A DNA stretch of 12,718 nt, taken from a virus (Duplodnaviria > Heunggongvirae > Uroviricota > Caudoviricetes). The stretch lies in IMG/VR virus record IMGVR_UViG_3300029577_000207. The stretch is one strand, 5' to 3'. Numbering within the stretch: position 1 is the stretch's first letter; each line of letters starts with the position of its first letter. Positions 8,959 through 11,430 of the stretch are shown here, one piece after another. The notes beneath the pieces are model-generated. The model was given only the letters and a program-made list of their open reading frames with translations, was not told the DNA's origin and made no database searches. The translations under genes and the position numbers were made by a program.

Positions 8959-11430
8959 ATGAGTAAAGTCTTTATTTGCGCCGCTATTCCTGACGAACTG
9001 GCAACAAGGGAAGAAGGCGCTGTGGCTGTAGCCACAGCCATTGAAGCTGGCGACGAACGCCGTGCTCGAGCAAAATTTCACTGGCAGTTCCTGGAACATT
9101 ATCCGGCTGCTCAGGACTGCGCTTATAAATTTATTGTCTGCGAGGATAAACCTGGCATACCCCGCCCTGCCCTCGATTCATGGGATGCTGAATATATGCA
9201 GGAAAACCGCTGGGATGAGGAGTCTGCTTCTTTTGTCCCGGTTGAGACTGAATCCGATCCGATGAACGTCACTTTTGACAAGCTGGCCCCTGAAGTACAG
9301 AACGCTGTCATGGTTAAGTTCGACACATGTGAAAACATCACCGTTGATATGGTTATTAGCGCACAGGAATTGTTGCAGGAAGACATGGCAACATTCGACG
9401 GACATATCGTTGAAGCGTTGATGAAAATGCCAGAAGTTAACGCCATGTATCCGGAGCTTAAGTTGCACGCCATTGGGTGGGTTAAGCATAAATGTATTCC
9501 TGGTGCTAAATGGCCCGAAATTCAGGCAGAGATGCGCATCTGGAAAAAACGTCGCGAAGGTGAACGCAAGGAAACCGGAAAATACACGTCTGTTGTTGAT
9601 CTCGCCCGCGCCAGAACCAATCAACAGTACACTGAAAATTCAACAGGAAAAATCAGCCCGGTCATTGCTGCCATTCATCGCGAATACAAGCAGACATGGA
9701 AAACACTGGATGACGAACTGGCCTACGCTCTCTGGCCTGGTGATGTGGATGCCGGAAACATTGACGGCAGCATCCATCGCTGGGCAAAAAAAGAAGTTAT
9801 CGACAACGACCGCGAAGACTGGAAGCGTATCTCGGCATCAATGCGCAAACAGCCTGATGCCCTTCGCTACGACCGCCAGACTATTTTTGGCCTTGTCCGT
9901 GAGCGTCCGATCGACATTCACAAAGATCCCATAGCACTGAACAAATATATCTGCGAATACCTGACGACAAAGGGCGTGTTTGAGAATGAAGAAACAGACC
10001 TGGGCACTGTTGATGTTCTCCAGTCATCAGAAACACAAACTGATGCAGTGGAAACTGAGGTATCTGATATCCCAAAAAATGAAACCGCGCCGGAAGCTGA
10101 ACCATCTGTAGAGCGTGAGGGGCCGTTCTATTTCCTCTTCGCAGATAAGGACGGAGAAAAATACGGTCGCGCAAACAAACTTTCTGGTCTGGATAAGGCA
10201 CTGGCTGCTGGCGCCACTGAAATCACAAAAGAAGAATATTTTGCCCGAAAAAATGGCACATACACGGGCTTACCGCAAAATGTAGATACCGCTGAAGATT
10301 CAGAACAACCAGAGCCGATAAAAGTTACCGCTGACGAAGTAAACAAAATTATGCAGGCAGCCAATATCAGCCAGCCTGACGCCGATAAGTTGCTTGCTGC
10401 ATCACGTGGTGAATTTGTTGAAGGGATTAGTGACCCGAATGATCCGAAATGGGTTAAGGGGATCCAGACCCGCGATTCTGTGAACCAGAACCAGCATGAA
10501 TCGGAACGGAACTACCAAAAAGCGGAACAAAACAGCACAAATGCGTTACAAAACGAGCCAGAAACGAAACAGCCTGAACCAGTGGCGCAACTGGAAGTGG
10601 AAAAAGTCTGCACCGCCTGCGGTCAGACCGGCGGCGGCAACTGCCCTGATTGTGGCGCGGTGATGGGCGACGCAACATACCAGGAAACATTCGATGAAGA
10701 GTATCAGGTTGAAGTTCAGGAAGATGATCTGGAGGAAATGGAAGGCGCTGAACATCCACACAAGGAGAACACTGGCGGCAATCAGCATCACAATAGCGAT
10801 AATGAAACTGGCGAGACGGCAGATCACTCAATTAAGGTGAACGGTCATCACGAAATCACATCCACCAGCAGGACGTGTGACCATCTAATGATCGACCTTG
10901 AAACCATGGGAAAAAATCCTGATGCCCCGATCATCTCAATAGGTGCAATATTTTTCGATCCGCAAACCGGAGATATGGGACCGGAATTTAGTAAGACTAT
11001 CGATCTGGAAACTGCTGGCGGAGTCATTGATCGGGACACCATTAAATGGTGGCTTAAGCAATCACGCGAAGCGCAATCTGCCATTATGACCGATGAAATC
11101 CCGTTAGATGATGCACTGTTACAATTGCGGGAATTTATCGACGAAAACTCCGGTGAATTTTTTGTTCAGGTTTGGGGAAATGGAGCCAACTTCGACAACA
11201 CGATTTTGCGCCGTTCATACGAACGGCAGGGGATCCCCTGCCCGTGGCGTTACTACAACGATCGCGATGTACGCACAATCGTTGAGCTGGGGAAAGCCAT
11301 AGACTTCGATGCCAGAACGGCTATTCCATTCGAAGGTGAGCGCCATAATGCACTTGATGACGCCCGTTACCAGGCAAAATACGTTTCAGTTATCTGGCAA
11401 AAACTGATCCCGAGTCAGGCTGATTCTTAA
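8959..11430 (+). CDS. ydfE: YdfE-like large protein (823 aa) with C-terminal DnaQ-like (DEDDh) 3'-5' exonuclease domain and a CxxC-x8-CxxC zinc ribbon
   Basis: Exo I MIDLETMG, Exo II [13 protein letters not shown] and Exo III [10 protein letters not shown] motifs in the last ~185 residues (about nt 10870-11427); [15 protein letters not shown] at about nt 10609-10656; long acidic Q/E-rich linker. Gene symbol is by position after ydfD. Confidence 0.7.
   Translation: [823 protein letters not shown]

Follow-up and report, generated by a model that had tools for sequence, protein, structure and literature searches.

RecE is the basis of RecET recombineering. The genuine 883-residue RecE used here as comparator carries PF06630 at its N-terminus and a PD-(D/E)XK nuclease domain (PF12684) at its C-terminus. 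The RecE N-terminal domain has no known function, and full-length RecE improves linear-linear recombination (2023 review, PMC11611040). Phage T4 DexA is a 3'-5' DNA exonuclease whose dimer cuts DNA containing 5-hydroxymethylcytosine (5hmC), and its E. coli homologue EcD cuts T4 DNA, spares unmodified DNA and protects cells from T4; among bacteria, DexA homologues are commonest in Escherichia, with none in K-12 (Kang et al. 2025, PMC12153337). Prophage-borne DEDDh nucleases of the ISG20-like TONDO group, which carry auxiliary domains, defend against RNA phages (2026 preprint, PMC13344964). Here, we describe an exonuclease gene at positions 8959-11430 of a 12,718-nucleotide stretch of viral DNA (the window; IMG/VR record IMGVR_UViG_3300029577_000207, Caudoviricetes), which represents a Qin-type lambdoid prophage at rspB. 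Judging from its sequence, the product is a mosaic, head-swapped relative of RecE, since its middle is homologous to the non-catalytic region of RecE and leads into a C-terminal DEDDh exonuclease domain (the head) of the DexA family.

The window gene is the intact form of a prophage gene that survives in K-12 only as the pseudogene ydfE. Its open reading frame (ORF) runs from ATG to TAA through 823 codons with zero internal stops, has a GAGG 10 nt 5' of the ATG and is 100% identical in DNA to the E. coli S1 gene WP_001515375.1, annotated 'exonuclease'. An initial annotation of this DNA had given the same coordinates for an intact 823-codon frame and had described K-12 ydfE as an IS2-disrupted remnant. 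Both statements hold: the frame is open throughout, and in MG1655 b1577 (ydfE) is an annotated pseudogene, overlapped by IS2E, behind which come the pseudogenes insD7 and intQ and finally rspB. The K-12 YdfE translation differs by a single substitution from window residues 1-255 and departs from the window protein at the IS2 junction; in a K-12-type strain, the DNA match stops at gene nucleotide 767. The two loci share the neighbours dicB, ydfD, int and rspB, whereas everything past residue 255, including the RecE-like linker and the exonuclease head, has been lost to IS2 in K-12. The absence of a DexA homologue from K-12 fits this truncation. The identity with K-12 YdfE, together with precomputed matches to PF27430 (YdfE_N) and PF27432 (YdfE_C) that sit on proteins 83-100% identical to the window protein, places the latter in the YdfE family.

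The sole strong Pfam family at the C-terminus is PF16473 (Rv2179c-like 3'-5' exoribonuclease domain), which matches residues 642-813 over profile positions 2-177 of 177 with an E-value of 2.3e-67 and a score of 226.5 bits (cut-off 27). In an alignment that comprised the head, DexA at full length, ten enterobacterial relatives and a homologue from Hydrogenophaga, D646, E648, D746, H796 and D801 occupy invariant columns opposite D7, E9, D119, H186 and D191 of DexA, and the residues of Exo I (D, E), Exo II (D) and Exo III (H-x4-D) are all in place. The DEDDh domain with all three motifs that had been proposed earlier is therefore confirmed by a full-length profile match and five invariant catalytic residues, none of them degenerate. 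Most likely, the head is a two-metal, Mg-dependent exonuclease, predicted to remove nucleotides from free 3' ends, and its substrate is probably DNA, after DexA and EcD. A variant of the catalytic set is found in E. coli MNCRE44, where an otherwise intact allele of 823 residues (L108 3001-5472) has Glu for the Exo II Asp (D746E, ANFENTIL).

The only solved relatives of the head found by sequence were 8KEL and 8KEN, which represent T4 DexA and its S87A/D90A mutant (PMC12153337). Head and DexA share the PF16473 family, phrog_255 and the aligned D-E-D-H-D residues. They differ in that their identity is 27% and that DexA is a standalone protein of 227 residues with extra loops, encoded by a lytic phage; the S87/D90 tetramer switch of DexA is not clearly conserved in the window head. 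Within the limits of an alignment at 27% identity, W152 of the DexA 5hmC reader stands opposite Y766, in a column that holds W, Y, C, V, T or R among the relatives, and D169 stands opposite F783, which is flanked by D782 and D784. EcD (HAK9828821.1, an HREX protein) is likewise an E. coli DexA homologue of the head's family that is absent from K-12. HREX proteins, the DexA/EcD-type exonucleases that recognise 5hmC, are taken here as standalone proteins of ~190-230 residues with a specificity set by their dimeric or tetrameric state, whereas the window head forms the C-terminal quarter of an 823-residue protein, and the primer-derived ends of the short EcD (MIDTET... and ...TIPETYD) differ from those of the head (LMIDLETMG... 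and ...IPSQADS). EcD was missing from the 120 relatives closest to the head, a set that extends down to 57% identity; its 3' primer pattern had no match in viral contigs, and its 17-nt 5' primer pattern gave 99 chance matches in genome contigs. One of these, the Hydrogenophaga homologue (L027), was considered as EcD and rejected, since despite 41% identity to the head it has a different C-terminus. The family PF16473 was founded on Rv2179c of Mycobacterium tuberculosis, and its profile is matched end to end by the head; Rv2179c differs in being standalone and described as an exoribonuclease, and the likeness drawn here is through the family profile alone. The TONDO proteins, which are likewise associated with prophages and join a DEDDh exonuclease to auxiliary domains of unknown function, offer a conceptual parallel only; they belong to another DEDDh subfamily, are shorter than 500 residues and act on the 3' untranslated regions of RNA phages (PMC13344964).

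The middle of the protein connects it to RecE. The exodeoxyribonuclease VIII equivalog model NF007259 matches residues 246-625 at model positions 271-602. The score of 280.4 bits lies far under the cut-off of 1269 that defines a RecE equivalog, and the window protein is therefore not RecE. Pfam searches found neither PF12684 nor PF06630 (Exonuc_VIII) in it, both of which genuine RecE has. By BLASTP, identity to RecE amounts to 27% over residues 262-336 (RecE 295-368) and rises to 80% over residues 474-548 and 74% over residues 553-622 (RecE 471-605). The DNA is 78% identical to recE across 448 nt, with a 126-nt core at 92%. In the direct comparison with RecE, similarity is absent from the first 244 residues and from the head, and it ends where the RecE nuclease domain begins. 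Rac RecE and the window protein share a lambdoid-prophage slot, a homologous helical domain, a linker that is nearly the same in both, Cys motif and acidic stretch included, and an overall plan of a large, dispensable-looking N-terminal carrier followed by a C-terminal nuclease. They differ in the head, which is PD-(D/E)XK (PF12684) and 5'-3' in RecE and DEDDh and predicted to be 3'-5' here, and in the N-terminus, which is PF06630 in RecE and YdfE_N in the window protein; the latter also has an extra mini-domain (residues 385-435) and no recT after its gene. The opposite polarity of a DnaQ-like exonuclease to lambda Exo and RecE had been remarked upon before.

Two features of the linker had been described earlier in terms that need adjusting. 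The proposed CxxC-x8-CxxC zinc ribbon does contain four conserved Cys residues: C551, C554, C562 and C565 are kept in five alleles, in a segment whose synonymous divergence (dS) reaches ~0.9, and Rac RecE retains three of the four. The spacer, however, is x7 and not x8, shorter than in typical zinc ribbons, and the zinc site is putative. The low-complexity acidic linker is likewise present (residues 561-600 contain 14 D/E and zero K/R, followed by a tail rich in His, Asn and Gln), but it is not anonymous, as it belongs to the segment homologous to the RecE middle. A His-rich tail like this one is also found ahead of P0421 and P0422, which are separate DEDDh proteins. Within the otherwise fast-evolving region, the peptide 474-500 (10378-10458) is nearly identical in the window protein and RecE and recognisable in relatives that carry a third type of head (see below); it looks like a short binding motif and is a candidate partner-binding site.

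To describe the remainder of the carrier, we used an AlphaFold2 (AF2) model of residues 1-460, built on 68 sequences of 27-95% identity. On our reading, the protein is built as modules on a string, in which YdfE_N, YdfE_C, a beta-hairpin/helix module, a flexible RecE-type linker and the DEDDh head follow one another (Table 1). The mini-domain between YdfE_C and the RecE-like segment carries a nearly invariant ERxGPFY...GRANK motif in the alignment columns and is gapped in the alignment with Rac RecE.

Table 1. Features of the exonuclease gene, its surroundings and a split counterpart. pLDDT, predicted local distance difference test score; dN/dS, ratio of non-synonymous to synonymous substitution rates from four divergent full-length alleles.
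Feature	Coordinates	Strand	Residues	Basis or remark	dN/dS
sok antitoxin RNA, next to hokD	2780-2954	-		Rfam, 115 bits	
DicF small RNA	8263-8314	+		Rfam RF00039, 76.7 bits; ~650 nt upstream of the exonuclease gene, same operon	
dicB (8489-8677) and ydfD (8674-8865)	8489-8865	+		annotation of 98% identical locus L005; directly upstream	
Whole ORF, intact ydfE form	8959-11430	+	823 plus stop	annotated 'exonuclease' or '3'-5' exonuclease'; phrog_2082 match full length	
Domain 1, alpha/beta (PF27430 YdfE_N)	8959-9576	+	1-206	pLDDT ~90; family-specific, absent from RecE	0.03-0.07
Domain 2, helical (PF27432 YdfE_C)	9691-9987	+	245-343	core common to RecE (RecE ~237-388); pLDDT 79-91 per 10-residue block	0.08-0.16
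Disordered acidic linker	9988-10110	+	344-384	pLDDT <50	0.8-1.1
Mini-domain	10111-10263	+	385-435	AF2: two beta-hairpin strands, helix, strand, helix	0.02-0.19
Segments between mini-domain and head			436-635		mostly 0.24-0.44, one pair 0.97
RecE-like segment	10378-10824	+	474-622	74-80% identical to RecE 471-605	
Four-Cys motif C551xxC554-x7-C562xxC565, putative zinc knuckle	10609-10653	+	551-565	Cys spacing	
Acidic stretch and His/Asn/Gln-rich tail into head	10654-10881	+	566-641	composition	
DEDDh 3'-5' exonuclease head (predicted)	10882-11397	+	642-813	PF16473 (Rv2179c/DexA family); D646, E648, D746, H796, D801	0.12-0.33
Excisionase gene (xis)	11503-11754	+		immediately downstream of the exonuclease gene	
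Tyrosine integrase gene (int), truncated by IS3	11789-12637	+		similarity to intact int ends at 12637	
Separate carrier and head genes (Klebsiella grimontii)	L117 4672-6720			slot before xis/int; also L118, L119	

In relatives, the scaffold of the window protein is joined to at least three other heads. An exhaustive search of residues 1-260 against 1.84 billion representative proteins (clustered at 50%) returned 96 clusters only, indicating a narrow family. On the shared N-terminal carrier, P0121 and P0123 have the DEDDh head, P0157, P0188, P0191 and P0212 have a PF12684 head of the RecE type, and P0124, P0131, P0128 and others have heads without a Pfam match. The third-head group consists of proteins of 680-800 residues from Salmonella, Enterobacter, Klebsiella, Kosakonia, Citrobacter, Pantoea, Serratia and Erwinia, whose C-terminal 300 residues lack a Pfam match (P0131, P0124, P0132, P0182, P0204 and about 100 more; locus L006 7001-9340). 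These proteins have the YdfE_N and YdfE_C carrier and no recognisable nuclease domain, and are often named 'exodeoxyribonuclease VIII'. Their head was modelled confidently as a beta-sheet with a three-helix bundle and displays the motif AYGATPY...KKSLTDAxKKALSLLGFSADV; it gave no fold match in the PDB, and a reading as a Rad52-like annealase has a sub-threshold Pfam match only. A fourth head type, found in P0128 (702 residues), matches phrog_26058 of unknown function and is unrelated to the other three.

The association of carrier and head extends across lineages, in which the two are found either fused or side by side. In Klebsiella prophages, a 423-residue protein corresponding to the N-terminal half of RecE (PF06630; RecE model 9-388) adjoins a 239-residue DEDDh protein before xis/int, and the latter starts with an acidic, His-rich tail like that of window residues 600-640. 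In Salmonella, a standalone head of 189 residues is the last gene before xis/int. In one such Salmonella prophage (L110 2637-6570), the genes ahead of the standalone head are yfdP, DUF2303, a deoxyribonucleoside 5'-monophosphate phosphatase-like gene and a member of the DndB family; such surroundings have a flavour of nucleotide and DNA modification that might bear on the role of the head. A different situation is seen in an E. coli prophage at the yccA site (L114 737-3127), in which three consecutive ORFs of 456, 157 and 183 residues represent an apparently disrupted full-length gene. The '183-aa standalone 3'-5' exoribonuclease' of E. coli (277 cluster members) is the last of these three ORFs. 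Some 'standalone' entries are therefore fragments.

The folded modules are under purifying selection (Table 1). Furthermore, dS shifts ~10-fold between adjacent modules within single sequence pairs: between the window protein and the L108 allele it is 0.08 in the head and 0.77 in the zinc/acidic segment, whereas between the window protein and L109 it is 1.06 in the head and 0.09 in the zinc/acidic segment. These jumps are the signature of recombination at module borders.

On the plus strand of the window, a DicA-type repressor gene, ydfA-like genes, DicF RNA, dicB, ydfD, the exonuclease gene, xis and int follow one another; the order on the minus strand is Q, ydfU, rem, hok/sok, a HEPN-domain gene, DUF977, an O-like gene, a YdaT/cII-like gene and cro. 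The order kil/dicB - ydfD - exonuclease - xis - int recurs in yccA and ompW prophages with unrelated integrases, and across the three integration sites the exonuclease gene is always the last before xis/int, standalone heads included. The equivalent place in Rac reads kilR ... recE - recT ... xisR - intR. The initial annotation had assigned the gene to the recombination slot and had noted the lack of an annealase partner, and both points agree with what we found. The gene sits where Rac has recE-recT, between kil/dicB-type genes and xis-int, and nothing is encoded between its stop (11430) and xis (11503). RecT occurs within 6 kb in 0/80 near-identical viral contigs, no annealase is annotated in phage HannyBb, and no annealase-like PHROG was found among the unassigned early ORFs of the window, HannyBb and the Salmonella loci, Erf, Red-beta and Sak not having been searched with queries of their own. 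A scan for promoters and terminators around the gene gave nothing above shuffled expectation. At the far end of the window, an IS3 insertion starts at 12638 and supplies the int stop codon (12636-12718 are 100% identical to IS3 ends). The prophage is thus probably unable to excise, its integrase being cut by IS3, while its exonuclease gene is intact.

The gene is widespread. We found a copy covering at least 80% of it in 3537 of 5426 complete E. coli genomes (~65%), with a median of two and a maximum of ten matching places per genome. Isolated or plaque-forming phages that carry it include HannyBb, PhiR42_1, Tritos, mEp460, Evi and the PPompW group. Among 80 near-identical viral contigs, 67 ORFs could be read to the stop; 63 of these have 823 residues, two have 825, one has 830 and one has 603. 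Searches by the full-length protein or locus were saturated with near-identical E. coli copies.

With moderate confidence, we read the gene as a modular early-operon nuclease, in which a RecE-like carrier and a DexA-type head would form a tethered 3'-5' exonuclease that acts on DNA 3' ends and does not start annealing recombination. The gene would be expressed together with dicB once the DicA-type repressor is lifted. The carrier, interchangeable with that of RecE, would bring the head to a RecE-type substrate or partner, plausibly linear DNA ends, and the protein would degrade or trim linear DNA rather than start single-strand-annealing recombination. Generally, 3'-5' DEDDh enzymes remove the 3' tails that are used by annealases, such as those of the lambda Red and RecET pathways, and by RecA. 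A recombination-starting role is disfavoured because no annealase was found and because the 3'-5' polarity destroys the 3' tails that recombination needs. As for what the nuclease would serve, we would tentatively put degradation of competing or foreign phage DNA first by a narrow margin, with support from the EcD precedent and from the retention of the gene in defective prophages such as this one with its IS3-broken integrase. A role in processing or protecting the ends that the phage itself generates in replication and recombination, independently of an annealase, comes almost level with it, a role of some other kind is a slightly weaker prospect, and a role on RNA would be improbable. Several points weigh against a tethered DNA-end nuclease. 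The activity of the fused 823-residue protein is predicted from its sequence and homologues, and the AF2 model, which covers residues 1-460, leaves the zinc site and the contact between head and linker as predictions. The targeting of DNA ends is suggested solely by the sharing with RecE, as a fold search of the carrier against the PDB found no relative, and RecE's own N-terminal role lacks assignment (PMC11611040). The 5hmC-reading residues of DexA are not clearly kept in a head that is only 27% identical to it, and an RNA substrate is conceivable, given that Rv2179c has been described as an exoribonuclease. Moreover, repression of the dicB operon in lysogens speaks against a constitutive defence, and PADLOC gave zero matches on the protein and four neighbours.

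The rival explanations account for parts of these data. It is unlikely, yet deserves attention, that the protein would be an anti-phage defence nuclease of the HREX type, which spares unmodified DNA and digests 5hmC-containing or otherwise modified T-even DNA entering the lysogen. The head belongs to the Pfam family of DexA and EcD, of which EcD protects against T4 and cuts 5hmC DNA, and the richness of Escherichia in DexA homologues with none in K-12 matches the distribution of the gene (PMC12153337). Its neighbour dicB is a prophage gene, and the ORF stays intact in decaying prophages. However, W152 and D169, the specificity residues, are not clearly conserved, EcD is short and standalone with other termini and falls outside the 120 closest head relatives, and the gene is part of an early-left operon that inducible phages keep repressed, rather than of a defence island, with the PADLOC result pointing the same way. 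The 640-residue RecE-like carrier would also be left unexplained. A second rival is a recombination exonuclease functionally equivalent to RecE or lambda Exo, which would prepare DNA ends for host RecA/RecFOR or an unrecognised annealase: the slot is shared with recE-recT and exo-bet, the middle is homologous to RecE up to the head boundary, true RecE heads sit on the same scaffold in relatives, and full-length RecE improves linear-linear recombination (PMC11611040). We nevertheless regard this as quite unlikely, as a 3'-5' polarity strips the 3' tails that annealases and RecA use, and neither the RecT search of the 80 loci nor the early ORFs of the window, HannyBb and Salmonella yielded a candidate partner.

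An RNA substrate would be expected if the protein were a 3'-5' exonuclease like Rv2179c or TONDO, trimming DicF, operon transcripts or the genome 3' ends of RNA phages. The Pfam family is named after an exoribonuclease, DicF is encoded in the same operon just upstream, and prophage-borne DEDDh exonucleases with auxiliary domains do act against RNA phages (PMC13344964). Against this, DexA (8KEL/8KEN), the closest structurally and biochemically characterised relative by sequence, is a DNase, the TONDO proteins are of another subfamily and smaller, and the RecE-derived carrier points to DNA, so that we judge an RNA nuclease improbable. A decaying prophage remnant, whose long frame has no function, might be suspected from the IS3-disrupted integrase and from the broken copies in K-12 and some other strains. 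We rejected this reading, which we rate as extremely improbable, on the selection analysis: dN/dS is 0.02-0.33 in the folded modules and ~1 only in the disordered linker. In addition, the catalytic residues and the Cys residues are kept, the length is exactly 823 codons in 63 of the 67 copies that could be read to the stop, and plaque-forming phages carry the gene. The tethered DNA-end nuclease, our preferred reading, can also be extended to a broader proposal, which is possible if rather doubtful. The N-terminal region of YdfE and RecE would then be a general delivery module of enterobacterial lambdoid phages that brings interchangeable heads to one target, the heads being 5'-3' PD-(D/E)XK, 3'-5' DEDDh and at least two of unknown fold. 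In such a scheme, the DEDDh version might be an annealase-independent nuclease at DNA ends that excludes rival phages or makes phage ends unusable by RecBCD.

We found no functional study of ydfE or of the fused protein in the searchable literature, within which the earlier statement that its function is open is borne out. The sequence, the exonuclease annotation and the Pfam domains are already public, and the gene is extremely common; what is new relative to the searchable literature is the head-swap relationship with RecE and the wider set of heads. This 2.5-kb gene is present in about two thirds of complete E. coli genomes, often in several copies, and the fact that K-12 has a stump only may explain why it has attracted little study. 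Its product links RecE, whose N-terminal ~600 residues are without a known role, to the DexA/EcD exonucleases of phage-host conflict. If the shared carrier were a targeting module, the natural head swaps would make the function of the RecE N-terminus directly testable, and the DEDDh version could be a widespread prophage-encoded exclusion or end-processing function. The name 'exodeoxyribonuclease VIII', given to relatives without a recognisable nuclease and sometimes to the window protein itself, is unsupported.

Apart from the exonuclease gene, the window contains a 310-residue ORF at 3468-4400 on the minus strand, between the replication genes and hok/sok, which is a HEPN-domain protein according to a 98% identical genome. 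PADLOC gave zero matches for this ORF. It occupies the site where K-12 Qin has relBE, ydfV and flxA, and it may be toxin or defence cargo.

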